A stretch of DNA of 53,191 bases from an uncultured Methanosarcinales archaeon (GTDB lineage: Archaea > Nanobdellota > Nanobdellia > Woesearchaeales > CAZPJY01): contig CAZPJY010000009.1 of NCBI GenBank assembly GCA_964587045.1, positions 1 to 53,191 of the forward strand, read 5' to 3'. Each line of letters starts with the position of its first letter. The first letter of the stretch is position 1. Of this stretch, positions 28,083-44,650 are shown one piece after another. Below the pieces are notes generated by a model that saw only the letters and a program-made list of their open reading frames with translations, was not told the DNA's origin and did no database searches. Made by a program: the position numbers and the translations under genes.

Positions 28083-29279
28083 ATGCTCATAGAAGTTTTG
28101 ATAGCCGTTTGCTCAGGAGTACTCGCAGGCATCTTCACAGGCCTCATCCCAGGCATCCACATCAACCTAGTCGCACTGGGACTGCTCACAGCGTCGCCCA
28201 TTCTTCTCAGGCACATCTCGCCCCTGCCGCTTGCATGCTTTGTCATTGCCATGTCAGTCACCCACAGCTTCCTCGACTTCATCCCTTCGGTCTACCTAGG
28301 AGCCCCTGACCCAGACACCGCCCTCTCCATACTTCCGGGGCACAAGCTGCTGCTCGCTGGCAAGGGCTACGACGCGGTGCGCCTGACCCTCATCGGAAGC
28401 CTCATCTCCCTGGTGCTCTGTGTCATACTCACCCCGCTGCTACTCGTTGTCTTTCCGATCATCTACCCATTCTTCTCAGAGCACATGGCCCTGCTTCTGT
28501 GCGGCATCATCCTCTTCCTCGCAACAAGGGGGCCGTTCTTCCTGAACCTCGCCGTCTTCCTAGCAACAGGACTGCTGGGGCTCGCTGTCCTTTCCCTGCC
28601 AAACCTCCCTAACCCTTTGTTCCCCCTCCTTTCCGGGCTGTTTGGTGTCTCAACTCTCCTGCTCTCGCTGAACAGCGATTCCAAGCTTCCGGAGCAGACG
28701 ACTGAGGCAAGCGTCATGATAGACCAGCCGACGACTCTCAAGGCCGCGGGTCTCGCGACAATCGCAGGCAGCCTGACAGGGCTGCTGCCCGGGCTCGGCG
28801 CTGCCCAAGGAGCTGCGCTCGCCACGACGTTTGCCAAAGGCCTGGGCGAGTTCGGCTTCATGATAATGCTTGGGGGCATCAACACCGCCAACTTCGTGGT
28901 GAGCCTCGCCACGTTGCTGACGATGGGCAAGGCGAGGAACGGTGCTGTGATAGCTGTCTCGCAGCTGCTGGAGATGGACAAGGCAGTGCTGGTCGTCTTC
29001 CTCGCCGTGGCAGTCATAGCCGGAGCCGCTTCTGTGTTCATAGCTATCGGGATTTCCAAGCAGTGCTCCAAGGCGTTTTCCAGGGTGCCTTACAAGAAAC
29101 TGGTGATGGGAATCATCATGCTGCTGGTGGCGATGACGTTTGGCTTTTCAGGATTCCTTGGGCTGCTTGTGCTGTTGACGTCGACCGCGATAGGTCTGAT
29201 AGCGCCGCTCAAGGGGGTGGGCAGGCATTTTGCGATGGGCTGCCTGATCCTGCCTGTGGTAGTGTTCCTATCTAGCTAG
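28083..29279 (+). CDS. TctA-family (tripartite tricarboxylate transporter-like) permease
   Basis: GIFTGLIPGIHIN, HSFLDFIPSVYLGAPD, LPGH, PLLSGLFG, GLLPGLG; very hydrophobic. Confidence 0.88.
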   Translation: MLIEVLIAVCSGVLAGIFTGLIPGIHINLVALGLLTASPILLRHISPLPLACFVIAMSVTHSFLDFIPSVYLGAPDPDTALSILPGHKLLLAGKGYDAVRLTLIGSLISLVLCVILTPLLLVVFPIIYPFFSEHMALLLCGIILFLATRGPFFLNLAVFLATGLLGLAVLSLPNLPNPLFPLLSGLFGVSTLLLSLNSDSKLPEQTTEASVMIDQPTTLKAAGLATIAGSLTGLLPGLGAAQGAALATTFAKGLGEFGFMIMLGGINTANFVVSLATLLTMGKARNGAVIAVSQLLEMDKAVLVVFLAVAVIAGAASVFIAIGISKQCSKAFSRVPYKKLVMGIIMLLVAMTFGFSGFLGLLVLLTSTAIGLIAPLKGVGRHFAMGCLILPVVVFLSS

Positions 29280-30056
29280 GTTCGGATGGGTCAATGCCAG
29301 ACGATTATAAAGGTAATGGCCCATCTTCTCTGCCGGCCAGATATTGCCGTTGATTCCATCAATAAGGGAGTTGACCTCGCTGATGAAATCAGAAAGTCTG
29401 GCGTTGCCAGTTTCCCTTGAGTATTTAGCAATCCTTTTGACTTTGAACAGCTCTTCTGATTCGAAGACATTCTGGCCACGGGTCATGACCAGGCGGAATT
29501 TTGGCTCATCGGGCGCGATACACCCCAGGTAGTCAGCAAGCTCTTTTGCGTGATTCATGAACAGTCCTAATGTCAGGTAACCATCAAGGATGATTTCGTT
29601 GTTGTTCTTCCAGGAGTTGAATAAACGGATATCATGATAGTACAGCGCGTTCTTCAGGCCTTCTCTGACCACTGAGGGGAGCGGGTCATAGCTTGATTCC
29701 GCATAAACGTTGAAAGGGTTGGGTATCAGTTTTCCAAGATCTGTATTCCTAATAAGGTAAGCGAGGTCGATGTCAGTCTTCTTCAGAACTTTTAGAATGT
29801 GCGCTTTTGGAACTTCTGCAATACGTGGATTGAATCCATGTGTAAATCTGATGTGATCAACATACTCGGCAATATGATGCGGATCATAATATTTTGATGC
29901 AGAACAATACGAGTATTTCACTATCTGCATTAGGCACGGCCGCACGTCGAAAACTGAAAGCTTCTTCTCCTTTTTCGGCTTTTTAGGAGCTTTCTGTTTA
30001 GGAGCTTCCTCGCCTGATGCGAATTCCAGATCCTTTCCTCTGATTACTTGGTTCAC
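29268..30056 (-). CDS. MoxR/vWA-operon paralog 3 (N-terminal tag family)
   Basis: GTG start in GTGA overlap with the upstream stop; begins (M)NQVIRGKDLEFASGEE. Confidence 0.75.
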   Translation of the reverse strand: MNQVIRGKDLEFASGEEAPKQKAPKKPKKEKKLSVFDVRPCLMQIVKYSYCSASKYYDPHHIAEYVDHIRFTHGFNPRIAEVPKAHILKVLKKTDIDLAYLIRNTDLGKLIPNPFNVYAESSYDPLPSVVREGLKNALYYHDIRLFNSWKNNNEIILDGYLTLGLFMNHAKELADYLGCIAPDEPKFRLVMTRGQNVFESEELFKVKRIAKYSRETGNARLSDFISEVNSLIDGINGNIWPAEKMGHYLYNRLALTHPNLAR

Positions 30057-30826
30057 GCGCCCCACTTGGTTTTGTACTCTCTCTTTACCCTTTTGAAATC
30101 CTCAAGCATCGGCATCAGAGCTGTTATGTTGTAAAGCCTTGCGAACTTGGTGAGGGACTCTAGGCTAGGCATGGATTTCGTTATGATCTGCTCAATATCA
30201 TCCTTCCACCGCTTATCACAGGATTCAGTCTTTGTTATTTCCAAATCGTCGTTGTCAATTCCGACCTTGATAGCCAGAGCCATCATCGGGCGGTATTCAA
30301 TCTTCATGTCCATGACGTAGACGAGAGGGTGATACGTGGTTATTTCTCGCCTGGTGACCAGCAGGTCTCTTTGCATCTTCTCAAGATCCGGTATGAGCGA
30401 AAACAGGTACTCCTTGTTGGACAGGTCATCATCAATGCTTTTTACTATGTCTGTTTCCAGTATGTAGTCGTCCCCTACCAGCTCGCGGAGCATCTGGACC
30501 AGGTGCTTCTTTTCTATGGTCCTGCTCCAAACCACGCTGTGATGTATCCCATTGTTATAAGCTAATGGTTCGATATCGAAGAGGTAAATACCTGAGTACC
30601 TGACGGCATTTTCATATTTCGGGCTCCAGTCTGCCCCACCAGTTTGGCCCGGCACAAGACCCTGAAAGTATTTCACCAGGAAGTCCCCGATGACCTTTCC
30701 GCCTTCCTCCCATATCTTGCCGAGGCCGCTTTCAGGCTTTTTCTCCTCGACTTCTGGAGTCTCCTCTTTAGGGACTTCTTCGCCAGATGCGAATTCCAGG
30801 TCCTTTCCCTTGATTACCTTGTTCAT
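29997..30826 (-). repeat. Two copies of a 60-bp 5' coding segment (29997-30056 and 30767-30826)
   Basis: Hand alignment gives 50/60 identical nt, including shared GATGCGAATTCCAG. Encodes the N-terminal tag of paralogs 2 and 3. Confidence 0.85.
30053..30826 (-). CDS. MoxR/vWA-operon paralog 2 (N-terminal tag family)
   Basis: ATG 2 nt after the upstream stop; begins MNKVIKGKDLEFASGEE. Confidence 0.78.
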   Translation of the reverse strand: MNKVIKGKDLEFASGEEVPKEETPEVEEKKPESGLGKIWEEGGKVIGDFLVKYFQGLVPGQTGGADWSPKYENAVRYSGIYLFDIEPLAYNNGIHHSVVWSRTIEKKHLVQMLRELVGDDYILETDIVKSIDDDLSNKEYLFSLIPDLEKMQRDLLVTRREITTYHPLVYVMDMKIEYRPMMALAIKVGIDNDDLEITKTESCDKRWKDDIEQIITKSMPSLESLTKFARLYNITALMPMLEDFKRVKREYKTKWGA

Positions 30827-30828
30827 GC

Positions 30829-31566
30829 TTACCACATGTTTTGATAGTCTAATACCCTGCTGTTGATGTCCTCGATGATCGTCCGCAGTTGCCTTACCCC
30901 GTACCTCTTGGCCTCTTGGGCTAGCAGGGTGAGGGGCACCGTCGCGTTGGATACCTGAGAGATCCTGTCCGCATGATTGAAAGGCTCTCCCCGCATCATA
31001 CCGCTCTGCAGGCCTTCCCTGATTGCCACCGCGACAAGAGGCCTGTTCTCAGGCTCAAGCCCCATGCACAGTATGTAAGGGTGCACTGAAATCCCCTGCT
31101 TGGTGGAACCGGCCAGAAGTTTCGTGGCTGCTGTGAAACTGGGTATTATCTCATCGATGTTAGGTTCGTCTCCTATCAGGTCAGTGTTGTTGATTTCGTC
31201 GCCATACACGCTTTCCAGCACCTTGAATAGGAACTGGTAGTTCGGCATTATTATATCCACATTTTGTGAGGCTCTTTCTGGTGACCGGCTCCAGGCAGGA
31301 TATATTTTCAGGACGAAGGGCCCCATCCTCGTAATGAACTCCTTCATCGACGGTCCTAGGTTCCGTCCCCATGACTTATTGTTCAGATTGCCTTCGAAGT
31401 AGTCCACCAGAGCTTCACCCAGGTATTCCTGTGCGTCCTTGATGAGGTTCAGACCGCTTCTGGTCTGCCGACTGACAGTCTCCTCCAAGGATGATTCCTC
31501 CTGTCGGGGTTCCTTATTTTCAGAGCTGAAGTCCAGCTCCTCGTTCGATCTTATAACCTTGCCCAT
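30829..31566 (-). CDS. MoxR/vWA-operon paralog 1 (N-terminal tag family)
   Basis: TGATG overlap with the vWA gene; begins MGKVIRSNEELDFSSE; body aligns by eye with paralog 2. Confidence 0.78.
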   Translation of the reverse strand: MGKVIRSNEELDFSSENKEPRQEESSLEETVSRQTRSGLNLIKDAQEYLGEALVDYFEGNLNNKSWGRNLGPSMKEFITRMGPFVLKIYPAWSRSPERASQNVDIIMPNYQFLFKVLESVYGDEINNTDLIGDEPNIDEIIPSFTAATKLLAGSTKQGISVHPYILCMGLEPENRPLVAVAIREGLQSGMMRGEPFNHADRISQVSNATVPLTLLAQEAKRYGVRQLRTIIEDINSRVLDYQNMW

Positions 31567-33743
31567 CAGCTGTCACCGGTGTATTTGATCAGCACTTCGC
31601 CCAGCACCTTCTCGACGTCCTTGACAGATCCGACTATCCTTCCCTGGACGTTTGGGTGCTTTGACGCTAAATTTTGGATATGTGAATAGTATGAACCTCC
31701 TGATCTTACGCCTATGAAGAGGATGCTCCTGTCCGGCTTGTTGGCTATCTCCTCGATCTTCCTCATGTTGCCTGACACATCACCTGTTATATCGCCGTCT
31801 GAGACTATTGTGTAGACTGCCTTGCCGTGCTTGACGTCCTTTTCGCACTTGTCAAAAACCGACGTCTTGATGGCCGTGCCGCCCCACTGGGGGATCAGCT
31901 GGACCTTCTTGAAGAAGCTTGAGTGGTCCTTGTACACCGACTCGAGGTCGAATACGCCTGAGTAAACGGTCGAGTTGGAGAACTGCACCGCCCCGACGTT
32001 GACTGGTATGCCCATTTCCTTTGCGACCGGGTAGATTGCCTTCATCCACCCGTAGTCTATCCTGTTGAGCTGGTCGAACTTGTTCTCTGAGCCGAGGTAG
32101 CCTGAGCTGCTGGACTTTCCTCCTTCATTCATGCTCCCTGAGACGTCGTTGAACATGAACCAGTACTCAGGCAGTTCTATCCCCGACTTCTCATAGTTGA
32201 TGGCCCTCACAGGTATTTCATTGACTTTGTATTCGTAGTAGTAGGTAAGGTTGGTGGCCTTGTCGTGCCTGAGCATGGGTATGCCTGACGCCTGCTGCAG
32301 CGCTAGTATGTGCTTGATGTTGAAAGTTGCCAGGTCACTTGGCGTGAGCAGGTGGGTTGTCTTGTAGACGAGTATCTTCCGGTTGCCCAGGTTCTTTGAT
32401 ATCACTCGTGTGTGCGGGCTCCTCAGCTTGATGGGAACAGCGTTCTGCCTGTAGAACTCGTCAGCAGCCTGCACCGCGAGGTCTAGCTTGACCTGCTTGC
32501 CTGACGGCTCGCCTGCGCCGTTGCCTCCCGGGCTTGGAGTGCTTCCTCCTGACAGCTCCTGCTGGGCCGCGTTGGCCACTTCCGTGAGAAGGCTCTGCGC
32601 TTCGCTCTCGTCGCCTTCCTCAGCCAGCGCTTCCAATATGTTGGCCAGGGCTTCGCTTGCGTTGCCGCCTGTTCCTCCCATCGAAAAACGGCCCTCTTCC
32701 TGCTGCGTGGAGATGAGGTCTGCGAAGGACTGCACGAAACCCCTGAACAGGTCGTAGCGCAGCTGGTCCTTCTCAAGCATGGTCATCATAGTGCTCAGGG
32801 CTGTGTCGCGGGCAGCTAGGTAGTTGCCCTCGCCGTCGAACAGCGAGTCCACCGCTTTCAGGTAATCGTCCCTGTTAAGGTTATAAGCCTTCATTGCCTT
32901 AGCGTCGATTTCCTTTACCACGCCTTCCAACGCATCCTTCGCCCTGTTTTCCGGGTCGAATCTACCTGACGCTGCCTGCTGCGCCTTCTTCTCAAACAGC
33001 TTGTTCACGTTCTCCCTGACCTCTTCGTCGTTGATGAACAGCTTTCCGTAAAGTATCCGCGACAGTGGGTATGTGGGTGAAGGCTGGCTTCTGGAGTGGT
33101 GGAACTCGACTATGTCCCATATCGGGACGACCGCGTCCGGAAGGTTGCGGATGTTTTCCTGCAGCAGCTTCACTGCTTCCCTGCCGTACACCGTCTCAAT
33201 AGATTTCGGGAGAGTGATGTCCATCTCCTTCATGGCATAGAAGGTGCAGTCGTCCCCGAAATCGTGTATCAGGTTCCTGATGTTACCCACCTTCCTGAGT
33301 ATGTCCGCCCTGTTGCCAGGTGCTGCCTCCTTGATACCCCTGTACAGCGCTAGGTCGATTCTTTTTGCGTCCTTCCTTCCCCTGGGGATGTCCGTGTCGT
33401 GGATCATCTCGTGGAAGAACAGGTAGACAAAGTTGTCGCGTGCCAGGCTCTCCACCAGCTCTTTTTCGTCCTTGCGGCCGGGAACAGCGCTGTTGCCGTA
33501 CAGCTTTGCGATCCTTTCCCTTCCGAACAGCGGTATTACTGCCTTGATTAAGCCCTCCTCAATCGCCTTTGGGTCATTGATTTGTGCGATGTATTTGGAG
33601 TGGTCGTTTGCAAAGAGCCACATGTGACCGCCCTGCTGGGGCTTCTTGTCGACAGGCCAGTCCTTGCGAAGCGGGTTCTCCAAGGTGATGATCTTCCTGA
33701 AGAGACCCTCTGCACGGTCCAGCTGTTCGCGTATGATGCTCAT
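31566..33743 (-). CDS. vWA-domain protein with N-terminal HExxH metallopeptidase-like motif
   Basis: FFHEMIHD near the N-terminus, Gly/Ser-rich linker, MIDAS FNDVSGSM ... GGT ... IVSDGD. Confidence 0.82.
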   Translation of the reverse strand: MSIIREQLDRAEGLFRKIITLENPLRKDWPVDKKPQQGGHMWLFANDHSKYIAQINDPKAIEEGLIKAVIPLFGRERIAKLYGNSAVPGRKDEKELVESLARDNFVYLFFHEMIHDTDIPRGRKDAKRIDLALYRGIKEAAPGNRADILRKVGNIRNLIHDFGDDCTFYAMKEMDITLPKSIETVYGREAVKLLQENIRNLPDAVVPIWDIVEFHHSRSQPSPTYPLSRILYGKLFINDEEVRENVNKLFEKKAQQAASGRFDPENRAKDALEGVVKEIDAKAMKAYNLNRDDYLKAVDSLFDGEGNYLAARDTALSTMMTMLEKDQLRYDLFRGFVQSFADLISTQQEEGRFSMGGTGGNASEALANILEALAEEGDESEAQSLLTEVANAAQQELSGGSTPSPGGNGAGEPSGKQVKLDLAVQAADEFYRQNAVPIKLRSPHTRVISKNLGNRKILVYKTTHLLTPSDLATFNIKHILALQQASGIPMLRHDKATNLTYYYEYKVNEIPVRAINYEKSGIELPEYWFMFNDVSGSMNEGGKSSSSGYLGSENKFDQLNRIDYGWMKAIYPVAKEMGIPVNVGAVQFSNSTVYSGVFDLESVYKDHSSFFKKVQLIPQWGGTAIKTSVFDKCEKDVKHGKAVYTIVSDGDITGDVSGNMRKIEEIANKPDRSILFIGVRSGGSYYSHIQNLASKHPNVQGRIVGSVKDVEKVLGEVLIKYTGDS

Positions 33744-35638
33744 CAGTTGTTCCTCCCTAATGTCCTTGGAAGCCTTTGGATGTATACTCCGGGGAAGGTG
33801 ACGGTGCCTATCTTGTCCCTCTTTTCAACATATATCTTGCCCAGCTCCTCGAAGACCGATCCGACCAGTCCTTTGGACCCCTTGCCTGCGAGCTTGGAGA
33901 GTCTCTGGTCTATCGTGCCCTTGTATTTGTCCATGAATCCGGCGAGCGTGGCGAGGTCAGAAGCGCTGTGGTTTATGATCAGGCGCCTCACCTGGCTCCC
34001 GTTGTCGAGGGACTGCATAGATGACATCTGTGAGTAGAGGTTCTTGATGATCGTGTCGACGTTAAAGGAGTCGGAATGCTTGGCGGAGTGGAGAGCCTTC
34101 TTTATTGCCAGATTCTTGATTCCGCTGTCAGGGTCGTCCATCGAAAATTGTCTGCTGGTGTCGCTGAAGAGCTTCTGCTCGTACTCTGTCGCGAGTTTGG
34201 TGTATTCGATGATGGTCGTATTGATGGCATTCAGCGGTTCCTTTCCGGGCTGGCCGTCCTTGTTCTTGGCCAGTATTGCGGCGGCTATCGAGACGTCGTC
34301 GACTTGGAGCGTGTCCTCGTTTTTGAGGTAGGCCTCGAACGGGTCATCCAAATTGAACACCCGCATGATCTCCTTGATGGTGGATATCACGTCACCGAGG
34401 TCCTGCAGCTGGGCTATGTCCCTGGGCACTATCGTGGTGTTGAACTTGACTATCCCCTCGAGCACCTGCAGGTCGTTGTCGGTTTCGTCGATCGCCTGCA
34501 GGGCCGGAGCTGTCACCTGGTATTTGGGTCCCAGCACTTTAGTCCTGTTTTCCACAGTCTGGGCATCTACTGCCGCGGTCTGCTTGAGATCACCAGACAG
34601 CACCTGTACAAAGAGGTCGCCCAGTTCCAGCGCCGAGTAGTATATGTTCTTGTCGGTGCGCCTCGGATCGAGTGTATAGGCGTATATCGAAAGCCAATCC
34701 CTATCCACCTCTGAGTAGATTTCGTCCTTCTCCATCCCGAAGATGTTTGATACTACCTCACACCACTTGTCAAGCATCCTCTCATACTGGTGGTCCTGGC
34801 CGTTCGCGAGCCAAATAGAGGTTCCGAAGGCCTTGGCGGCGTTGGGCACCTGTTCCTTGATCATCCTGTTGAGCGAGGCTGCGTCGAGCTCCTGACTCTG
34901 GGTGAATTTTGCGTCGACGCTCGCCGGCGGGTTGGTCGAGCAGGTTACCTGGACCTTCTTCTTCCTGCGAGTGTCCTGGATTCCTTCGTTGGTGAGCTCT
35001 GGTACGTACGGCCCGATATCTGCCTTCTGGTGGCCTGCGGTGTCTATGCGCGCCTCTATGATCTGCATCATGGCCTGTGAGTCGCCCCTGCTTGCCTCGT
35101 CGATGTGGATGCGAGCCGTCTTGTCCAGGGCTTCGTGCTGGATTACGGTTTCGAAGTTGCCGTCCTCATCGACCCTGGTCTTAACGAAGTATGAGAGCAG
35201 GTTGTTCTGCATCGGGTTTCCCGAAAGCCTGACGTTTTGGTAGTTGTCAGGTGCCAGCACGGTCTTGTTGTACTCCTCAGCTGCAAAGGTCTTGCCTGCG
35301 CCTGTATCTCCCATCTGCAATATCTGCGTGCTTCGCATGTCGAAAGCCACGAGGAAGTCGATTGCCTTCATGTCGAGAGCTCCATCGACCTCTTCAGGGC
35401 AGTACCCATTCCGTTCCTTGAACATCAAGGTGTTGGTATCCGGGTCGTACCGTGCATGGAATATGGAATTGGGCCAGACCTGAGACGCCATCGTGTCGTA
35501 TACCGCTTCGATGAATCCGATCAGACTTGCGGTGTACACATTCTTGTCAACCTCGACGAGCTCGGTTATGCCCATCTCCCGGACCTTGTCCGCTATTTTG
35601 TCTAGAGTGTGTTTTGATAAGGTGGATTTAGTTGCCAT
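33743..35638 (-). CDS. MoxR-like AAA+ ATPase with long C-terminal extension
   Basis: Walker A GDTGAGKT, Walker B IHIDEASR, sensor STNP, LDAASLNR arginine finger. Coupled to the vWA gene; SD AGGAGGAG. Confidence 0.82.
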   Translation of the reverse strand: MATKSTLSKHTLDKIADKVREMGITELVEVDKNVYTASLIGFIEAVYDTMASQVWPNSIFHARYDPDTNTLMFKERNGYCPEEVDGALDMKAIDFLVAFDMRSTQILQMGDTGAGKTFAAEEYNKTVLAPDNYQNVRLSGNPMQNNLLSYFVKTRVDEDGNFETVIQHEALDKTARIHIDEASRGDSQAMMQIIEARIDTAGHQKADIGPYVPELTNEGIQDTRRKKKVQVTCSTNPPASVDAKFTQSQELDAASLNRMIKEQVPNAAKAFGTSIWLANGQDHQYERMLDKWCEVVSNIFGMEKDEIYSEVDRDWLSIYAYTLDPRRTDKNIYYSALELGDLFVQVLSGDLKQTAAVDAQTVENRTKVLGPKYQVTAPALQAIDETDNDLQVLEGIVKFNTTIVPRDIAQLQDLGDVISTIKEIMRVFNLDDPFEAYLKNEDTLQVDDVSIAAAILAKNKDGQPGKEPLNAINTTIIEYTKLATEYEQKLFSDTSRQFSMDDPDSGIKNLAIKKALHSAKHSDSFNVDTIIKNLYSQMSSMQSLDNGSQVRRLIINHSASDLATLAGFMDKYKGTIDQRLSKLAGKGSKGLVGSVFEELGKIYVEKRDKIGTVTFPGVYIQRLPRTLGRNN

Positions 35639-35783
35639 TTTGCTCCTCCTTTAGAACGTCGATTGTTATCTGGACGATGGTGTTGGGCGGAAGCTGGTCC
35701 TGTAGAATCCTAGGTATGACTATGATGGCCTGCTTGCCGTGCTTCGCGATCTTCTTGGTGATGGTGAAGGATTTCTTGTCCAT
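35628..35783 (-). CDS. Small AbrB/MazE-like (swapped-hairpin) DNA-binding protein, 51 aa
   Basis: Not in ORF track. MDKKSFTITKKIAKHGKQAIIVIPRILQDQLPPNTIVQITIDVLKEEQNGN; K-I-x-K-x-G...I-x-IP pattern; stop overlaps the ATPase start. Confidence 0.75.
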   Translation of the reverse strand: MDKKSFTITKKIAKHGKQAIIVIPRILQDQLPPNTIVQITIDVLKEEQNGN

Positions 35784-35803
35784 CGTTGATGACTCTGATT
35801 TTA

Positions 35804-35844
35804 TGTATAAACTATACAGTGGTAATACACTACAGCTATATAAA
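35804..35844 (-). promoter_or_regulatory. TATA box and candidate operator of the AbrB-MoxR-vWA operon
   Basis: TTTATATA on the minus strand (35837-35844); inverted repeat TGTATA-aac-TATACA (35804-35818) near the expected transcription start. Confidence 0.5.
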
Positions 35845-35942
35845 TCTTTCTATTTTTTATCACTTGTTGGTGGTAACATTTATATGATTAGTAATGGATT
35901 TGGCCCCAGCGATACATTTAAAAAGCCCCTAAGTTTCCCTCG

Positions 35943-36734: not shown

Positions 36735-38282
36735 ATGAGATTCAAGAGGATTGCCCTGTTATCTAACATCGCCCTATTCTTGCCCCTGCTCGCGAGTCTC
36801 GTTTATGCAGGGTTCACAGACCCTATCAGCTCTGTGCTAAGCGTCTTCGGCGACTTCAACGTCTATGACATCTACCAAAACTACTGGGGCATCATCGACT
36901 TCATCCTCTACCTTATCATCTTCATTGGCCTGTCGCAGCAGACCCTGGGCAGAAGGTTCCAGGGCCGCGCCTCCTCGTCAATATCCACTGGAATCGGCAT
37001 CGCGCTCGCGATAGCAGCTGCATTCGGCGCCAGGCAGTTCAACTTCAGGCTTGGCGACATGGCGCCCATCGCCCTCCTCATCTTCATCCTGCTCATCGCG
37101 ATGGAGATGGCATACGTCACCCACAGGCTCATCGGCGACTGGAAGCCGGCCATCGCCGCAGCCTTCCTGCTCACCTACTTTGCCATCAACGCTGTCGCGC
37201 CGTTCATCATGGACTGGCTCAGGGAGCGCGTCCCCTTCATAGCGAGCGTGTTCTCAATCCTCGTCATAATCGCGCTGATATCGGTCTTCGCCTTCGTGCT
37301 GAAAATCAGGAGGAGCGGAGGCGGAGCGACCATGGGTGACGTGGCCAGGGGGGCCAAGAGCGGCTGGAGGACAGGCAGGGACGAGCACGCAGCAAAAGTT
37401 GCCAGGAAGAAAGCCCTCAAGCAGGAGGACGAAGCCAATAAGGATGATGAGTTGAGCACGAAGCTCACAGCAGCGGAGATTGCAGCGTTGAATGCAGAGA
37501 GGGGGCCTGAGCATGAAGCGTGGGAAGAACTTCGCAGGGAGAAGTGGGACGTCGACAGGATCAAGGAGATCGTCCAGCGGGTGGATCAGGCTGAAGAGCT
37601 CATAAACCAGTACCAGCAGAAGGTAGACGCCGCACACGAAGACGCCCGCAAGCACGGCATGAACGATGAAAGGAGGGAACTCATCAAACGCGCTGAGGCG
37701 TACATCGGACAGCTTAAGGATCACAAGATGCAATTGGAAAAAGCGGCTAGCCAACCTGTGGCCGACTCCGCAGTACAACAGGGTAAAAAGGAGAAGGAGT
37801 CAGAGAAGCTCCAAGAGCTAGACAAGCGGGCGCTCAAGATTGCAGAGATGGACAAGGATGCTCTGGAGGAGGAGATAAAACATCTTAACAAAGAGCTCAA
37901 CGCAAGGGCGGATGAGCTCAGGAATGAGGGCGTAACAGATTACTCTTCCGATGAGAAAATGAAGCACCTTCAATCACGCATTGCCCTCCTTAACATCGCA
38001 ATAAGGGATATAAGCAAGGTAGTTGACGACGACAAGCGTCAGATACTGCTTGACAAGATGGAAAGGAAACTCGAAAGAAAAGAGCACAAGGATATCGTCG
38101 AGATGTACGCTTTGTTCAATGATATGAACAACCCGAGTAGGGAGGAAGCGGCAATCCACAAACTAAAATCAACAATCGGCGACCTCGACAGCGAAGTAAT
38201 AAAAGAAGCCAAGGTTGAACACGAGAAAAAAGAGTCCACTGAAAACGCTACAGAAGAATCCAAAAACGCTCAAAAGAAATAA
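36735..38282 (+). CDS. Polytopic membrane module + coiled-coil tail (array member 1)
   Basis: IDFILYLIIFIGLSQQTLGRRFQGR module, then a charged helical C-terminus. Confidence 0.78.
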   Translation: MRFKRIALLSNIALFLPLLASLVYAGFTDPISSVLSVFGDFNVYDIYQNYWGIIDFILYLIIFIGLSQQTLGRRFQGRASSSISTGIGIALAIAAAFGARQFNFRLGDMAPIALLIFILLIAMEMAYVTHRLIGDWKPAIAAAFLLTYFAINAVAPFIMDWLRERVPFIASVFSILVIIALISVFAFVLKIRRSGGGATMGDVARGAKSGWRTGRDEHAAKVARKKALKQEDEANKDDELSTKLTAAEIAALNAERGPEHEAWEELRREKWDVDRIKEIVQRVDQAEELINQYQQKVDAAHEDARKHGMNDERRELIKRAEAYIGQLKDHKMQLEKAASQPVADSAVQQGKKEKESEKLQELDKRALKIAEMDKDALEEEIKHLNKELNARADELRNEGVTDYSSDEKMKHLQSRIALLNIAIRDISKVVDDDKRQILLDKMERKLERKEHKDIVEMYALFNDMNNPSREEAAIHKLKSTIGDLDSEVIKEAKVEHEKKESTENATEESKNAQKK

Positions 38283-38324
38283 TCCAAACCTTTAAATATC
38301 CTTTTCCCCAATTTCTCGACTTAG

Positions 38325-39959
38325 ATGAAGCGATTAGGCCAGATTAACCTATTTCTGTTGCCAATCCTAGCTACTGCCGTAGCCGGTGGGGGAACAGACC
38401 CCATATCCAGTGTTCTATCAGTCTTCAGGAACTTCAGCCTCCCAAACGTCTACCAGGGCAACATCGCTCACTTCATCGACTTCATAATCTACCTGATAAT
38501 ATTCATCGGCCTCTCGCAGCAGACCCTGGGCCGCAGGTTCGAAGGGCGTGGCGGCTCCGCACTGACGACAGGCATGGGTTTGGCATTAGGCATAGCCGCA
38601 GCAGTCGCAGAGTACTACTTCGACTTCGTGCTGGGGAACCTCGCTCCGTTAGCTCTTGCCATACTCATCATAGTCGTGTCAATCATGCTCTTCACAGTCC
38701 TACTGGCCCTCGGGCTTGATAAATTCACAGCGACTTCAACGACCTATGTCACAATGTACTTCATGTTCTTCGCTGTCGCGCCTGAATATTTCGACTGGAT
38801 GAGGCAGCAGTCGAACGCGCTCCTCGGAATCCTGTCCATAATCCTCCTAATCGCTATATGGCGCATGTTCCAGGGATTGTGGTACGCTTTCAGGCCGCAT
38901 ACAGAAGGCGCAGGAGAAGGTATCGCCAACAGGCTGAGCAACCTGGATAACCGTGACACCACAGATTACGGCTCATTCGCCGACGACTACAGGGAGGCAA
39001 GACAGAAGAAGCAGGAAGATGTCGAAGATCTCGAGAAGAAGCGTCGGTTCGAGCACATCAACAAGGTAGAGGACGCCGCGTTCAACGACATCAGGACAGC
39101 GGTTGCCGAATGCAAGCACTACATCATGAACATCATATCGTACAACCAGAAACCAACGCCCGAGATCTACGACACCATATTCAGCTACGTGGCAAAGATC
39201 AGATCGCTTTTCAGGGACAGGATAAATGAGATAACAGAGGAGAGGAAGCAGCACCTGAAGGAGCTCAAGCAAAGTGCCGATACAGACATCAAGCGTCTTG
39301 AGAAATTGCTCAAAGGCAACAAAAAGGAAGGAAATATCGAAGGTAAGGAGTCCCGCAAGGCTGAGGAACAAAGAGATATAATCAACGAGGAGATGAAGAA
39401 AGCCAGGAGTATAACATACGATAAAGCCAGAGAGAAAATACTTGCTTACCTTGATCGCATCGACAAGGAGCTAAAGGAAGTCGAGCAAGAAGCGAAGCAG
39501 ATGAAGGAGCTCACCCTCAGAGTTATCAACTCAACGCCTGCCTGGATTGATTTCCACAGGCAAATGAGCCTGCGCCTCATGTCTTACTTGGACCATTTCA
39601 AGAGTCTGGAAAAAAAGCACCAAACCATCAGCAAGATATTGAACATGCTTGAAAACGTCCTGAAGGACCTGGAAAAGATGCCCCTCTCCCAAAGGCAAGT
39701 GCAAGTGGTCAAGGAGGAGTTCGAGGCGCTAGAAGGACACATCACAGACATCCAGACCGCGCTGAGGAAGGTCAGGGAAGTCGAGTCCGTAGAGTTCAGG
39801 TCAAAGGAGCAGGAGTTCGAACGCCTAACCAAAGAGCTCGAGCGGTGGAGCGCCCGGAAGTACCAGCTTGCTAGCCGTATCAAGACTGTTAAAAAAGCTC
39901 TTAAGAAAGATCTTGAGCAAGTCAAGGAGCAAGCAGAAAAAGATGAGTCACAGCTTTGA
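38325..39959 (+). CDS. Polytopic membrane module + coiled-coil tail (array member 2)
   Basis: IDFIIYLIIFIGLSQQTLGRRFEGR module and a different charged helical tail; own TTTAAATA box near 38291. Confidence 0.78.
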   Translation: MKRLGQINLFLLPILATAVAGGGTDPISSVLSVFRNFSLPNVYQGNIAHFIDFIIYLIIFIGLSQQTLGRRFEGRGGSALTTGMGLALGIAAAVAEYYFDFVLGNLAPLALAILIIVVSIMLFTVLLALGLDKFTATSTTYVTMYFMFFAVAPEYFDWMRQQSNALLGILSIILLIAIWRMFQGLWYAFRPHTEGAGEGIANRLSNLDNRDTTDYGSFADDYREARQKKQEDVEDLEKKRRFEHINKVEDAAFNDIRTAVAECKHYIMNIISYNQKPTPEIYDTIFSYVAKIRSLFRDRINEITEERKQHLKELKQSADTDIKRLEKLLKGNKKEGNIEGKESRKAEEQRDIINEEMKKARSITYDKAREKILAYLDRIDKELKEVEQEAKQMKELTLRVINSTPAWIDFHRQMSLRLMSYLDHFKSLEKKHQTISKILNMLENVLKDLEKMPLSQRQVQVVKEEFEALEGHITDIQTALRKVREVESVEFRSKEQEFERLTKELERWSARKYQLASRIKTVKKALKKDLEQVKEQAEKDESQL

Positions 39960-40031
39960 CTCCTTAACCTATTTCTCCTCTATAAGCAATCCAAACATTT
40001 TTATAGGAGTAAAAGCAAAATATGGACTATT

Positions 40032-41393
40032 ATGGATAAATACCGCACAAACCGTGCGCTCAAGCTAGTTTTACCTTTGATAGTTCTATTTTCGAGCATC
40101 CCAGCGGCGCTCGCAGACATCTACGGCTGGCTGTACGCGTGGCAGAGGATAGACTTCGGCTCCTTCTACATGAGGGCTGCAGGCTTCGTGGACTTCTTCG
40201 TCTACCTGCTCATATTCCTGGGGCTAGCCCAGTTCACCTTCGCAAGGCTCTATGAGGGCAGGTCCGGAAAGGCAGTTGCGATCGGAGTGGGCACAGCCCT
40301 TGCGATAGGGGCGGTAGTGGCAGAGTCGATGTTTGGCTTCAACCTGGGCTCGCTTGCCCCGATAGCCGTCATCCTTATCATAATCCTTCTGGGAATCGTC
40401 GTCTTCATGCTCTTCAAGAGCATGGACATTTGGACTGGTGCAGCGCTCTCGTGGACCTACATGATCATGTACTTCATATCCAAGGCAATGTTCCCCGGCT
40501 TCTGGGCCTGGATGTACTCGACCCAGTACGGGCGCGGCCTTGACGGACTGCTGGGCATCGCGCTGCTGCTTGCGATTTGGCGTGGCATCCAATCTGTCTG
40601 GATCGGTTTCAGGGTCGAGGACCCGGACAAATCGCCGCCAGACCCATACAGGGATCCAGAACCGTTCCCTGCAGACGATACACCTCGCCAGCCCAGGCAG
40701 AAGAAGTACCTGCCCAGGCCTCCCATGAACCTGAAGGCCATGCCCAATCCCGAAACAGGCCAGATCGAGGTGTCGTGGCAGCCTACTCCCAGCTCCGACA
40801 ACGTCAACCTCTACGAGGTCTACCGGATGCCCGGGCGCTCCAAGCAAAAGAAGTTCGAGCAGGTGGGATACGCAGAGCCGCCAAGCACGAGGTATGTGGA
40901 TGAGATAGTCCAGCCGGGAGAGAAGTACACCTACTACATCAGGGCCGTAAACGAGTTCGGTAGGAGCAACCCGTCAAATTATGATCACGCGACAGTCCCT
41001 GACCGGCCCGGACCGTCACCTCCACACAAGCCCACAATTGAGCCCGACGTCGCGAACAACAGGCTGCTGGTCAGCTGGAAGCCGAGCGACAAGGCTGGAG
41101 AAGAGCATGTCGTAGGCTACGAAGTCTTCAGGTTCCCAAACAGCAAGCACAAAGAAGAGTACGCCCAGGTACCAAAGGAAAAAGATGTCCTCAAAGGGAA
41201 TGAATATCACGATTCCAACGTCAAGAGAGGTATCACATACAGCTATAGGGTGAGGGCTGTAGACAAAGAGGACAGGAGGGGAGGCTTCAGCGACCACGAG
41301 GAAGGCACGCTCCCTGGAGTCCCCGACCTGACACCGAAGCTTCACATCAAGCACGGGGAGAATGAAGTAGTGCTGAGCGGAAAACTAGAATGA
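40032..41393 (+). CDS. Polytopic membrane module + two fibronectin type III-like domains (array member 3)
   Basis: VDFFVYLLIFLGLAQFTFARLYEGR module; PPMNLKA...VSW...YEVYR...YTYYIRAVN and a second copy ...YSYRVRAVD. Confidence 0.8.
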   Translation: MDKYRTNRALKLVLPLIVLFSSIPAALADIYGWLYAWQRIDFGSFYMRAAGFVDFFVYLLIFLGLAQFTFARLYEGRSGKAVAIGVGTALAIGAVVAESMFGFNLGSLAPIAVILIIILLGIVVFMLFKSMDIWTGAALSWTYMIMYFISKAMFPGFWAWMYSTQYGRGLDGLLGIALLLAIWRGIQSVWIGFRVEDPDKSPPDPYRDPEPFPADDTPRQPRQKKYLPRPPMNLKAMPNPETGQIEVSWQPTPSSDNVNLYEVYRMPGRSKQKKFEQVGYAEPPSTRYVDEIVQPGEKYTYYIRAVNEFGRSNPSNYDHATVPDRPGPSPPHKPTIEPDVANNRLLVSWKPSDKAGEEHVVGYEVFRFPNSKHKEEYAQVPKEKDVLKGNEYHDSNVKRGITYSYRVRAVDKEDRRGGFSDHEEGTLPGVPDLTPKLHIKHGENEVVLSGKLE

Positions 41394-44300
41394 GCGACAA
41401 GACCAACATGTTCATGAGGTACGCGAGAAGCGGTATGGACGAGAGGCAAGTCTTCGACCTGCTAGACGGGTTTAACTCCTCAAGCGGGAAGTGGACCGAC
41501 GAAGAGGTCAAGGCCATCGTCAAGGAGTACTCGGCATACTGGCGCAACTTCAGGGTGCTCATGGAGTTTCGGAAGCGGACCAATGAGCACGTGCAGAGCT
41601 TCAACGAGGCCGCTACAGAAGCATTAGGCCTGCAGATTGATGAAACCACACAGAACGTAAAAAACCTGCACGCTGCGGCAAAGGATTGTGCAGGAGAGCT
41701 CCTGAACTCCATACGTACATCAAAACTTGTGGACCCTGAACTGGACTTGATGTCAGACGACTTGGATAAGGGCTTGGAAATCTTCTGGAAGGCAGTATCC
41801 GAAGCTTCGAAGAAGAGCAAGAGGGTGGACAAGCTCAGGAATACTGCCAAGGACGAACTGTTTGGTAAGGATGAAGACCAGGAAGAAAATCTTAAAATCT
41901 ATAGAGGGAACAAGGAAATCTTCGCCTCTTACGCCAAGACGCGGGATCTAGCCACAAAGCTTGCGGAATCGGTTAAAGGACTTCAAGCGGCCAAAAACGA
42001 GGTCAACATAGCAGCTAATCACATTACGCTTGAGACCAAAAATACCTCAAAGAAGATAGGCAAATGGGAGGCGAAACCCTCCAAAGCAGATCAGGACCAG
42101 CTTGAGAAGAAAGAGAAGAAAAAGAAACTGTTCTTCTGGCGCAAGGACAAGGAAGACAAGGAAAAGGTCAAGGAAGCCAAGGAAAAGGGCCCAGAGCCGC
42201 CCAAGCCCCCCAAGCTAAAGGGCGAAAAGTTCCAGGGCATTCTGTACAGGTTCAAGGACCAAGACGAGTACAACGCGTTCAGGAACTCTTATCACACGCA
42301 TGACAAATCCTTGAAGGTGAACAAGGATCAGATACTCAAAGAACAAGAGTTCAAGCACGACGCAAACGTCATCCTCGAGATTAAGGAGCATTCTAAGAGG
42401 TTCCCTCCGAGCAAGACCGAGCATTACATTGGTTTTGGGGTGAGACCCGTAAGCGAGCCTGGCGACTTGGCGCATGACTGGATGTGGGCTAACGGACCGG
42501 ACGTGGTCGCGTACTTCTGCACTGTGCGTCTCGAGAACCCGCCTGACACGGTCGAGCTCCACAAGCTGACAGAGACACCATTCAAGTGCGTGATCGAAGG
42601 TCATGTCAGGAGGTGGTCCTGGCACTTACAGGCAGAGGGCTCAGGCAGGACATTCGGGCCGTATGCCACCAACAAGGAGGAGTTCATAATACCCACACAA
42701 GCAGTGACAGATGTCCAAGACGACGTGTTCAAGGTTGGCGTCGTGGCAGAAGGCAGCGAGGGCTTCAAGGCAACAACCCACGTCAAGGTTAAGGTTAAGA
42801 GGGATAAGGTGCCGGAAGGGCACGTGAGGGTCATCTTTTCAGTCAAGAGCTCTTTCGAAGACCGGCCCTTGGAAGACTGCTCAATAGTCAAAAATAATCA
42901 AACACACTCTCCTTTTAAGACGGACAAGAAGGGACTAGCTGAGCTCCACCTAAAGCCCGATAACTACCAATTCACCATCACCTACCTAAAGAACGTCCCG
43001 ACACACCACTCAGCTGAGGTCAATATCGCTAAGAAGGAGCTAGAAGGCAAGGAGTTGGTGGAAAAGCAGGTGAAGCTCGAGCTCATCGAGCACGAGGTCA
43101 GGATAGTGGTGAGGGATGGACGCGGCCAGCCAGTAAAGGCTCATGTGCACCTAAAACATCCTGAGACCTGGCCTGACAGGAGCACTGTGGAAAGGCAGGT
43201 GGATGGGTCGGATGTGTTCAAGCTTCCAGTATCAAACAAGCAAGTCATCGCCAAAGCCAAAGCAGAAGGCTATGAGGACGCAGAGGAAAGGTTCAAGGTC
43301 GATCAGGACAAACCCGTCACAATCACCTTGAAGAAGGTTGCCGACGGCCCAGTCATCGAAGGATTGGTCCTAAACGAGCTCACCAATAGAGGTATTTCGA
43401 ACGTGATGATCAAGATTCACCCCGGAACCGGTAAGGACGCGGATCCAACATGGCATCCGGTGATAAGCGACAACTCCGGCAGGTTCTCCTTCGTCGTGCA
43501 TCCCGCAGAGGAGAAGGTGACATATGTCGTGACCGCGCAGGGGAGCAAGCAGTTCCAGCGAATAAGCGACGCAGTTGACATAACCGTTATTACCAAGGGT
43601 AAACAGCCTGTTATAAAACCATCCCCTGTTAAGGTCTACCTAAAGCCTGAGATATTACATATCCCCCAGGTCAGGAGAATAGAAGCCAGACAGATCATGA
43701 CTGACAAGCCCAAGGTAAAACTTGTATGGGAGGTCGATGAGCCCGAGTTGCTAGTCATGAAACAGATGGGGATGTACTTCTCCATCTACCGCAAGGTTGA
43801 CAATGGCATGCTGGTGTGCCTACCTGACAAAGTAAAAATACTCCCCTACAAGTCTAAGCTCTTCTCCTTCGTTGACACCTTCAAAGACATTAGCCTTACA
43901 AAAAAAGATTTCGAGCACACTATCGACTACTGCATCAAAGTCTCCCATCCAGGTAAGGACGAGCACAACAAGCATTTCCTCAACCAGGGGGAAACTTCGC
44001 CCTTCGCCAGTGTGATACTACGAAATATTCCAAAGAAGCAGCTGGAACTGATAAAGAAGGCCGTAGAAGACCTGACAGAAAAATTCTCCCGCAAGAACTT
44101 GGTAACGATAAGCCAGGAGCTTGCTGATGATGTGATGAAATTATACAAGGAACAGCTGGAAAAGGACACAACCGCCGACAAGCTGATAAAGGCCTTAAGG
44201 GAAGACAAGGACGCCACCACGAAGAAACTCATCAAAGAGTTACACACGAAAATCGCCAAGATAATGCTAAAGCATGTGGAGAGCAGGCTGTCCAAACCAT

Positions 44301-44650
44301 TAGAAAAGATTATTGAACCCTTAAAAGGAAAGATTAACAACCAGCTATGGTCCACTCTAGAAAACGACCTGAAGACCGTGATTGCAAAGTGCGAGAGCCA
44401 ATCCGACGAGATAGCCGAGAAATTGACCAAGAAATTCATGTTCCAACTTGACATCATAATAAACCAAGCCGAAGGCAAGGCCCTGCCCAACTCCAAGGAA
44501 TGGAAGAAGGTCGTAGGCGAAAACCTCGATGTGGAAAGCGAGAGAAAGAGCCTCCTGAAGTACTACGCCGGTCTGGTCCTCGACACGGTCGATCATGTCC
44601 ACAAGATGCTCAAGGTTGTCGACGAAAAAGTCATACATGAAATTAGGTGA
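41390..44650 (+). CDS. Large Lys-rich protein (1086 aa): helical N- and C-termini with central beta-sandwich (carboxypeptidase-regulatory-like) repeats
   Basis: Long ORF in ATGA overlap; TDKKGLAEL, SDNSGRFSF and AKAEGY motifs; no signal peptide or TM. Confidence 0.72.
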   Translation: MSDKTNMFMRYARSGMDERQVFDLLDGFNSSSGKWTDEEVKAIVKEYSAYWRNFRVLMEFRKRTNEHVQSFNEAATEALGLQIDETTQNVKNLHAAAKDCAGELLNSIRTSKLVDPELDLMSDDLDKGLEIFWKAVSEASKKSKRVDKLRNTAKDELFGKDEDQEENLKIYRGNKEIFASYAKTRDLATKLAESVKGLQAAKNEVNIAANHITLETKNTSKKIGKWEAKPSKADQDQLEKKEKKKKLFFWRKDKEDKEKVKEAKEKGPEPPKPPKLKGEKFQGILYRFKDQDEYNAFRNSYHTHDKSLKVNKDQILKEQEFKHDANVILEIKEHSKRFPPSKTEHYIGFGVRPVSEPGDLAHDWMWANGPDVVAYFCTVRLENPPDTVELHKLTETPFKCVIEGHVRRWSWHLQAEGSGRTFGPYATNKEEFIIPTQAVTDVQDDVFKVGVVAEGSEGFKATTHVKVKVKRDKVPEGHVRVIFSVKSSFEDRPLEDCSIVKNNQTHSPFKTDKKGLAELHLKPDNYQFTITYLKNVPTHHSAEVNIAKKELEGKELVEKQVKLELIEHEVRIVVRDGRGQPVKAHVHLKHPETWPDRSTVERQVDGSDVFKLPVSNKQVIAKAKAEGYEDAEERFKVDQDKPVTITLKKVADGPVIEGLVLNELTNRGISNVMIKIHPGTGKDADPTWHPVISDNSGRFSFVVHPAEEKVTYVVTAQGSKQFQRISDAVDITVITKGKQPVIKPSPVKVYLKPEILHIPQVRRIEARQIMTDKPKVKLVWEVDEPELLVMKQMGMYFSIYRKVDNGMLVCLPDKVKILPYKSKLFSFVDTFKDISLTKKDFEHTIDYCIKVSHPGKDEHNKHFLNQGETSPFASVILRNIPKKQLELIKKAVEDLTEKFSRKNLVTISQELADDVMKLYKEQLEKDTTADKLIKALREDKDATTKKLIKELHTKIAKIMLKHVESRLSKPLEKIIEPLKGKINNQLWSTLENDLKTVIAKCESQSDEIAEKLTKKFMFQLDIIINQAEGKALPNSKEWKKVVGENLDVESERKSLLKYYAGLVLDTVDHVHKMLKVVDEKVIHEIR

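Follow-up and report, generated by a model that had tools for sequence, protein, structure and literature searches.

The window (the whole 53,191-nucleotide stretch analysed) carries an operon of six ORFs, all on the minus strand, a reading that was confirmed on the window sequence. The genes overlap or abut as the sequence-only reading had described, the junctions being an 11-nt overlap, TGATG, TGATG, a 2-nt gap and GTGA, and the single TATA box placed 5' of the operon is present (35844-35837), together with a purine-rich BRE. The features are as follows:

35857..35876, minus strand: imperfect inverted repeat directly upstream of the BRE, candidate operator to which the AbrB-like protein would bind
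35837..35851, minus strand: archaeal promoter, purine-rich BRE and TATA box (from the sequence; the arrangement recurs at homologous AbrB genes)
35628..35783, minus strand: AbrB/SpoVT-like small regulator, 51 aa (family profile against PDB 2GLW)
33743..35638, minus strand: divergent MoxR/dynein-clade AAA+ ATPase, 631 aa, with a long helical C-terminal region (alignment and profiles)
31566..33743, minus strand: 725-aa partner with an N-terminal HExxH metallopeptidase-like domain, a helical region, a long beta-hairpin finger and a C-terminal vWA/MIDAS domain (alignment and AlphaFold model)
33399..33413, minus strand: HExxH motif, H111-E112-H115 (residues 111-115; 34 of 34 aligned homologs)
32184..32414, minus strand: predicted two-stranded finger, residues 444-520, ahead of the vWA domain (model)
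32133..32147, minus strand: MIDAS DxSxS, residues 533-537 (alignment)
30829..31566, minus strand: P1, 245 aa, tagged, family A body, helical alpha/beta with no catalytic signature (alignment with P2)
31522..31566, minus strand: N-terminal tag of P1
30053..30826, minus strand: P2, 257 aa from ATG, tagged, family A body (alignment, model)
30773..30826, minus strand: N-terminal tag of P2 (compared with the P3 tag)
29268..30056, minus strand: P3, 262 aa from GTG, tagged, different body family (body homologs)
30003..30056, minus strand: N-terminal tag of P3 (compared with the P2 tag)

The profile of the AbrB-like family matched PDB 2GLW, which we take to be AbrB-like, with an E-value of 0.004, while Pfam returned no match for the 16 members. 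Homologs of this gene occur at 17 of 57 non-redundant loci; at some loci a different small protein, RHH-like by eye, occupies its position. A repeat similar to the candidate operator lies in the same place in most of the 19 printed upstream regions of AbrB-bearing loci, judged by eye and unscored. Self-regulation, as had been suggested, is judged likely, the AbrB-like protein probably acting on the promoter of the operon that encodes it. A sigma-70 promoter scan is inapplicable to an archaeal locus.

The GC content of the ATPase, vWA, P1, P2 and P3 genes is 0.542, 0.547, 0.519, 0.483 and 0.454, which corresponds to the 41st, 49th, 23rd, 6th and 2nd percentiles among the 1028 genome ORFs of at least 200 aa. 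The higher AT content attributed to the small genes is thus clear for P2 and P3 and only slight for P1. All six proteins fall below the family cut-off in Pfam, PADLOC and NCBIfam, and none of the six matched a catalogued anti-phage system in PADLOC 2.0. The family set contains no close relative, and two DNA runs gave fragmentary contigs in which no joints were seen.

The ATPase and its HExxH-vWA partner

The MoxR clade is marked by a helix-2 insert, a pre-sensor-1 hairpin and a repositioned lid. In an alignment of 39 ATPase sequences, the Walker A, Walker B, sensor-1 Asn and arginine finger are all in place, and G110, G113, G115, K116, E181, N236, P237 and R258 are invariant. The window ATPase by itself has no Pfam match; in its family, AAA_5 matches 16 of the 39 members and bpMoxR matches two, and the best match of the ATPase profile in the PDB is Midasin (E 6e-16). 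These invariant motifs and profile matches, with the linkage of the two genes, support the earlier identification of a MoxR-type ATPase beside an HExxH/vWA partner.

The partner had been said to combine an HExxH motif with an intact MIDAS, and both were confirmed, at H111-E112-H115 and at D533-x-S535-x-S537 plus T624 and D649. Across 34 vWA-protein sequences H111, E112, H115, N157, D161, D533 and S535 are invariant, so that the HExxH motif and the downstream N-x-x-x-D helix (N157, D161) are found in 34 of 34, and the window and most long-clade rows have the MIDAS Thr, short-clade rows having a different loop there. An N-terminal HExxH followed by an N-x-x-x-D helix is the signature of DUF2201, and the DUF2201 profile found no match among the 34 members. 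The vWA domain reaches the C-terminus of the protein, whose homologs are 598-784 aa long. In the AlphaFold model (pLDDT 85, pTM 0.82) the finger strands span 444-466 and 499-520, and the predicted finger is analogous to the one proposed for MoxR-partner vWA proteins in the relevant part of PMC9976466. The top structural match of the model is Rea1-MIDAS/Rsa4-UBL (Z 15.6, rmsd 3.4, 208 residues aligned); other vWA domains score within about 1 of the Rea1-MIDAS Z of 15.6-15.8, but with 30-40 fewer residues aligned. With the N-terminal domain included in the query, the fold lists were filled by vWA matches. When the vWA protein and full-length P2 were modelled as a complex, without the ATPase, the score was 0.00.

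In Woesearchaeales-type relatives (17 of 401 genomes, about 4%) the ATPase gene is accompanied by the HExxH-vWA gene, which is present at 31 of the 32 ATPase loci that have at least 4 kb downstream, and 13 of 17 well-supported splits of the ATPase tree are repeated in that of the vWA protein. We dropped L099-L103 and L105 as weak false matches, and of two loci found on viral contigs one is real.

A shared tag on unrelated bodies

The sequence-only reading had taken the three small genes for diversified paralogs. This applies to P1 and P2 (23% identity, E 8e-20), but the body of P3 is unrelated: its alignment with P2 is confined to the first 21 residues, pairwise comparison with P1 gave no match, and hhalign of the P3-family body profile against that of P1/P2 gave a probability of 0.3%. 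A single-linkage join of the P3 body to family A was rejected; it ran through L037:4633, which had been absorbed into the family A profile, and was gone once L037:4633 and L038:2401 were omitted. Homologs of the P3 body are tagged proteins of L037, L038, L021 (two) and L109, with E-values of 2e-4 to 2e-6 when about 90 bodies were compared. No further database match was found for P3, for which the Atlas search was blank, and word-indexed protein searches were nearly blank for both P3 and family A.

What P1, P2 and P3 have in common is a peptide of some 15 residues at the N-terminus. The tag DNA of P2 and P3 is identical at 44 of 54 nt, falling to 24 of the 54 beyond it, and in the 11 central codons there are three synonymous and zero amino-acid differences. 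By these comparisons, the link among the small genes is a short N-terminal tag in common, not paralogy. The same plan, a locus-specific tag, a flexible linker and then unrelated bodies, was found in the tagged proteins of other loci, where the body may be an unmatched helical fold, an LRR, a repeat or a C-type lectin. Tag similarity is 42.4 within loci versus 5.7 between loci (98 tags), a single tag sits on unrelated bodies within one locus in the window, L021, L039, L068 and L086, and the tag's residue pattern is retained even in single-copy loci with ATPases distant from one another. An automated screen returned 63 tag pairs, 28 with unrelated bodies; because some six of the pairs are false, owing to low complexity, and several others join remote paralogs, we used the set curated by eye.

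On that basis tagged genes occur at 33 of 37 full-vWA loci, with 1-8 per locus and at least two at 21; four loci have no recognisable tagged gene and many have one only. In held-out loci picked on vWA alone, the tag was found in five of six, and one of these, L109, shows a new tag variant on three different bodies. The core pairs do co-occur with the P1/P2 family, as well as with other tagged genes, whereas the sequence-only reading had named a lack of such co-occurrence as grounds for refuting it; family A bodies recur beside most long-clade ATPases. The proposal of a variable cassette in a DPANN host is likewise supported. Family A has no invariant residue apart from Met1, and in 44 of 45 pairs its bodies have diverged more rapidly than either core protein. 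In the P2 model (pLDDT 83, pTM 0.77) residues 1-33 are unstructured; the best PDB match of the fold has a Z of 4.2, which does not prove a new fold, and no viral structure matched at E 0.001 (best E 0.2). Pfam matched none of 39 cassette proteins to a characterised enzyme family. Since the recognisable scaffolds are lectin, LRR and repeats and no catalytic residue is conserved, the bodies look like binders rather than enzymatic effectors.

The tagged proteins of a sister clade belong to the AvpA-like lectins (E 4e-9, with a terminal RFxGV motif) and are targets of a DGR: 171 of 180 TR-VR mismatches fall at template adenines, counted over 14 pairs from 7 loci. Of 14 loci with an RT that were examined, 8 yielded a TR (one of them a near-duplicate), while contig ends cut several of the remaining six. 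At the window's locus we found no DGR, no TR for P1/P2 and no lectin gene, and the window's genome gave no RT or lectin-family HMM match.

Proposed function and relation to known systems

The changing set of tagged binders beside a motor and a protease-like partner suggests a machine that is re-aimed by swapping its recognition modules. We favour, with confidence that is about evenly balanced, a cytoplasmic adaptor-programmable machine for remodelling and cutting, on which tagged binders dock and deliver variable, probably foreign targets. By analogy with NorQ-NorD and Rea1, the ATPase would form a ring with one HExxH-vWA subunit on top and its finger in the pore. Each small protein would be a recognition module whose N-terminal tag docks on the machine and whose variable body, carried on the flexible linker visible in the sequences, would bind the target. 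The target or the module would then be gripped at the MIDAS metal, opened by ATP-driven pulling and cut at the HExxH site. Specificity may shift through the gain and swapping of tagged genes observed in the window's clade and the DGR hypermutation observed in its sister. The likeliest targets would be viral proteins or those of other mobile elements, a defence role having only indirect support, from the sister-clade DGR link, the fast divergence and the patchy distribution. Against this reading count the absence of a PADLOC match, the lack of an obvious killing effector encoded in the operon, the setting of long-clade loci amid housekeeping genes and not in defence islands, the many loci with one tagged gene and the 4 of 37 full-vWA loci with no recognisable one, and the fact that lectin-type DGR targets elsewhere have extracellular ligands. 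Co-variation of the tag with core domains is weak (partial r of 0.16-0.17 with the ATPase lid/C-terminal region and at most 0.10 with vWA parts, from non-independent pairs), and we do not count it as support. It is possible, at clearly lower confidence, that the system performs an intracellular antibody-like surveillance, in which interchangeable binders plug via a 12-residue peptide into a split Midasin-like motor and protease; the binders would be fixed paralog arrays here and DGR-hypermutated lectins in the sister clade, and captured proteins would be unfolded and destroyed. Such surveillance would amount to programmable targeted proteolysis that relies on neither ubiquitin nor the proteasome, and would explain what one class of archaeal DGR targets does.

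The tagged proteins could also be cargo, the tag being an address or pro-peptide read and removed by the machine, and the binders being folded, loaded or displayed on a surface, virion or secretion device for host attachment. The same core architecture has been proposed to act in virion protein assembly and processing in jumbo phages, according to the section of PMC7824862 describing it, and short-clade loci adjoin capsid, portal and terminase genes (L025) or PrgI/VirB4-like and pilin genes (L051); DPANN archaea are moreover host-dependent, and AvpA-like proteins have been proposed as symbiosis aids in the relevant passage of PMC5006420. However, a strongly hydrophobic 19-residue stretch occurs in just 2 of 98 tagged proteins, so that membrane segments are nearly absent, the loci share no conserved structural or secretion gene, and the long-clade loci, the window's included, have only housekeeping neighbours; we consider cargo unlikely. 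Less probable still are latent toxic effectors held by the machine or released on infection, for which the bacterial MoxR-vWA ternary proposal, as outlined in PMC7159879, is a precedent. The invariant peptidase site, the variable cassette and a glycine-rich hydrophobic segment in one tagged protein of L020 would fit, but the recognisable bodies are binding scaffolds (lectin, LRR, short repeats), and neither the Pfam search nor family A offers an enzyme or a conserved catalytic residue. Finally, the tag could be a genetic by-product, a 5' cassette (overlap, ribosome site and first codons) reused by incoming genes, with the core acting on a fixed housekeeping client. The similarity of the P2 and P3 tag DNA (44 of 54 nt) is in line with this, and locus-specific tags are expected from duplication and conversion; yet the differences in the tag core are synonymous, the pattern is kept in single-copy loci with distant ATPases, and a core found in only about 4% of sampled genomes is unlike a housekeeping system, which makes this explanation highly improbable.

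In regards to known systems, the MoxR-vWA ternary systems, as far as the consulted parts of Kaur et al. 2020 (PMC7159879) and Dore et al. 2024 (PMC10907252) describe them, likewise join a MoxR-vWA core to variable partners; a subset has DGR-diversified lectin domains, as in the sister clade, and neighbouring copies of their adaptors (EADs) are most alike, as are the tags here. They differ in having a third component (VMAP, iSTAND, FtsH or beta-propeller), which is absent here: the other operon genes encode 51-262 aa, the small ones have no Pfam match to any of these, and the vWA model has no propeller. Their effector domains lie C-terminal to the vWA, where there are none in the window's protein, which instead has an intact peptidase at the N-terminus. 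EADs are folded adaptors, one copy of which is fused to the core, whereas the tag peptide is short and linear, lacks structure in the P2 model and is not joined to a core gene at 28 of 29 loci (the exception being an ATPase extension at L046). The ternary conflict systems described are also bacterial, and the host here is a small archaeon.

Compared with the AvpA-class DGR targets of DPANN archaea (Paul et al. 2015, PMC4372165; Handa et al. 2016, PMC5006420), the sister-clade tagged proteins are likewise AvpA-like and show adenine-specific TR-to-VR mutation, but the published accounts, in the portions consulted, give no ATPase or vWA partner. AvpA itself leaves no room for a tag and linker, since its lectin fold begins at residue 8, and the window's locus differs from this class in having neither lectin gene nor RT. 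The purpose of DPANN DGRs has been an open question since 2015; a set of lectin targets is now placed within an ATPase-peptidase operon, and these targets have a docking-like tag in common with binders that are not hypermutated.

The architecture had been thought undescribed. This stands for the tag cassette, of which the searched literature (without Paul et al. 2017) holds no example, but not for the core, as the MoxR AAA+/metallopeptidase-vWA pair of jumbo phage group 2.2 (Iyer et al. 2021, PMC7824862) is the same two-gene core, presented in the section concerned with no tagged cassette, regulator or DGR. Among viral structures, Foldseek matched the vWA model best to long phage VWFA/CobT-like proteins (E as low as 8e-8, but TM-scores of only about 0.2). 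Neither PHROG nor DUF2201 profiles matched the core, which therefore represents a separate, divergent clade. Should the tag prove to be a portable handle, Midasin-type force transmission could be studied here in a compact model, and the system might also become a tool for retargetable protein degradation. A further parallel is Rea1/Midasin, the best ATPase profile match, whose MIDAS is also the best match for the vWA domain with its preceding helix and hairpin, and which pulls several clients by a common handle (PMC6624252). Compared with Rea1 and NorQ-NorD, as covered in the relevant parts of PMC6624252 and PMC9976466, the system here has a peptidase site, and its genes are split, unlike in Rea1; the handle would be a short peptide on interchangeable variable proteins, whereas in Rea1 it is a UBL domain on fixed factors.

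The operon and its core pair

In the sequence-only reading six genes were described with tight junctions, a TATA box, an HExxH motif and a MIDAS, and all of these were verified at their positions, on the minus strand. The features of the window are listed here.

29268-35844, minus strand: operon encoding an AbrB-like regulator, the ATPase, its vWA partner, P1, P2 and P3
29268-29279: 12-nt overlap of the 3′ ends of P3 and a convergent TctA-family gene
36735-44650, plus strand, just upstream of the operon: three adjoining genes (515, 544 and 453 aa) with a common hydrophobic N-terminal domain of about 190 aa, and then a gene for a protein of 1086 aa containing a carboxypeptidase-regulatory-like domain
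9608-16456, minus strand: a pair of large ORFs, 1007 and 1109 aa long, unmatched in Pfam at E 0.001

The operon is flanked by an L35Ae ribosomal protein gene on one side and the TctA-family gene on the other, and occurs once in the 1.6-Mb genome, whose completeness is rated 100% and in which our own RT profile found no match. None of its six proteins reached the Pfam, PADLOC or NCBIfam cut-offs. A conserved BRE-TATA element with an adjoining inverted repeat precedes the AbrB-like genes, which is consistent with autoregulation. The plus-strand array is a second constant-head, variable-tail set: its N-terminal domains share 46% and 26% identity with that of the first gene, and its tails are charged, coiled-coil-like (by eye) or FN3.

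A search of 1.84 billion representatives returned 63 relatives of the ATPase at E ≤ 0.001. The Walker A, Walker B, sensor-1 and arginine finger residues are invariant in a 39-sequence alignment, 16 of the 39 members match AAA_5, and Midasin is the top PDB match of the family profile. In the vWA partner, the HExxH motif, N157, D161, D533 and S535 are unchanged across 34 sequences, and the model (pLDDT 85) shows an N-terminal HExxH domain, a helical part and a long hairpin, with the vWA domain at the C-terminal end. Its best structural matches are ligand-bound Rea1-MIDAS structures, about 1 Z unit above ordinary vWA domains and additionally covering the preceding helix and hairpin; fingers of MoxR-partner vWA proteins have been proposed to enter the MoxR pore (Kahle et al., PMC9976466). 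Since the literature already describes a MoxR and metallopeptidase-vWA pair in jumbo phages (PMC7824862), the core belongs to a known type.

Of 401 genomes sampled for each rank, 14 for the order, 10 for the class and 17 for the phylum gave matches; this genome is counted every time, and the phylum figure also includes an unpublished genome that was left out of the later analysis. The named records are for the most part Woesearchaeota or Nanoarchaeota. Non-redundant loci with an ATPase of at least 400 aa number 57; of the 32 that have at least 4 kb downstream of the ATPase, 31 contain the vWA gene, and 13 of 17 supported splits agree between the two gene trees. These comparisons show that the predicted motor and the putative peptidase-vWA protein are co-inherited with their sites intact. 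The ATPases fall into a long clade (at least 590 aa), which includes that of the window, and a short clade.

A shared N-terminal peptide on different bodies

The three small genes had been taken for AT-rich paralogs. Against 1028 ORFs of the same genome, P2 and P3 are indeed AT-rich (6th and 2nd GC percentile) and P1 only slightly so. P1 and P2 can be aligned over their full length at 23% identity, whereas P3 is not a paralog: its match to P2 is confined to its first 21 residues, and profile comparison found no relation between the body families. The expected association of such a family with homologous MoxR-vWA pairs was borne out, family A (P1 and P2) being the usual partner in the long clade; the P3 family occurs in four other loci.

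By eye, small flanking genes within one locus start with 12-15 near-identical residues, in which a basic residue and two hydrophobics precede a Gly or Pro turn, then an acid and a hydrophobic, often Phe. In a set of 98 tags curated by eye, mean similarity was 42.4 within loci versus 5.7 between loci. Tagged genes were recognised at 33 of 37 full-vWA loci, with two or more at 21, and one locus (L037) carries eight in tandem running to the contig end; the four loci where no tag was recognised by eye and the many with a single tagged gene speak against universality. Six further loci, held out and picked by the vWA gene alone, had the ATPase in five of the five with room and the tag in five of the six, including a new variant carried by three different bodies (L109).

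In tagged proteins a Pro-rich linker follows the tag, and residues 1-33 are unstructured in the P2 model. This family A model has a confident fold, with no match found among PDB or viral structures. The family alignment contains no invariant residue beyond Met1, and in 44 of 45 locus pairs the family diverges faster than either core protein. Other bodies include an LRR protein (L068), a repeat with a 19-residue unit, beta-helical by eye (L021, L109), and several unclassified types. A strongly hydrophobic segment is found in just 2 of 98 tagged proteins; the sole clear membrane candidate (L020, 8785-9552) has a terminal glycine-rich one. At locus L046 a copy of the tag stands at the start of the ATPase ORF (9860-11836), as a fusion or as the remnant of a gene since deleted, and two upstream tagged proteins (6840-8631) look beta-propeller-like by eye.

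The short clade and its DGRs, and gene neighbours at other loci

Short-clade tagged proteins are for the most part AvpA-like C-type lectins. An RT match lies within the retrieved sequence at 17 of the 33 loci with a short ATPase (counting L048, a split long-type ATPase whose RT match is provisional) versus 0 of the 24 with a long one. The template repeat was located in 8 of the 14 RT loci examined, and 171 of 180 mismatches (14 pairs, 7 distinct loci) fall at template adenines. The comparison shows that fast-changing tag-linker-body proteins flank the core pair and are diversified through gene turnover in the long clade and through DGRs in the short one. Phage or conjugation genes adjoin two short-clade loci, so the DGR-bearing systems at these two may be carried by proviruses and conjugative elements. 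Individual loci, these two and others, are given below.

L025, 600-17048: system with DGR beside terminase, portal and capsid genes
L025, 11728-13401: reverse transcriptase of the DGR, about 557 aa long, with a C-terminal HTH_40 domain; several relatives are equally long and others about 370 aa
L051, 4480-9344: system with DGR beside pilin and PrgI/VirB4-like genes
L078, 6512-7675: protein kinase gene upstream of the ATPase
L042, 1380-2639: DnaJ-domain gene upstream of the ATPase, with a similar gene in L047

In one sub-clade (L043, L044, L076, L077, L015) the ATPase gene is preceded by thymidylate-synthase-like and QueC-like genes (Pfam, one example each) and by two conserved genes, of which one is tagged; this may be a nucleotide-modification module.

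Proposed working and relation to known systems

We give an even chance to a reading in which the tag would dock binders onto the ATPase/peptidase-vWA machine, which would remodel and cut the proteins they capture, probably foreign ones. That the tagged proteins are instead cargo, processed for display or assembly, seems to us unlikely, if the strongest of the alternatives, and that they are latent toxins is less probable still. Least credible is a tag arising as a purely genetic by-product: the P2 and P3 tags show synonymous changes alone across their 11 central codons, and identity collapses past the tag, which favours selection on the peptide.

The sequence-only reading had held the architecture undescribed; this no longer applies to the core pair, and stands for the tagged cassette, for which a full-text search found no description in main texts, although neighbourhood figures in supplements could lower its novelty. 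No such operon was found in the available text of Paul 2015 (PMC4372165), whose main text lacks the word ATPase, of Handa 2016 (PMC5006420) or of Roux 2021, whose main text has neither ATPase nor vWA. Dore et al. (PMC10907252), as far as available, report that conflict-system domains are missing from their CPR/DPANN clade 5F DGRs; for fusions of lectin and AAA domains in CPR bacteria they refer to Paul 2017.

The suggested likeness to bacterial MoxR-vWA conflict modules extends to the MoxR-vWA core, but the window system lacks their third component (VMAP, iSTAND, FtsH or propeller), their C-terminal effector and the folded EAD on a core gene. In its proposed working it resembles Rea1, which acts on shared handles, and also the DGR-linked systems among them. 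The system is real, conserved and more sharply defined than in the sequence-only reading; it is a MoxR-vWA variant, new in being built on a short peptide handle with a putative docking role.
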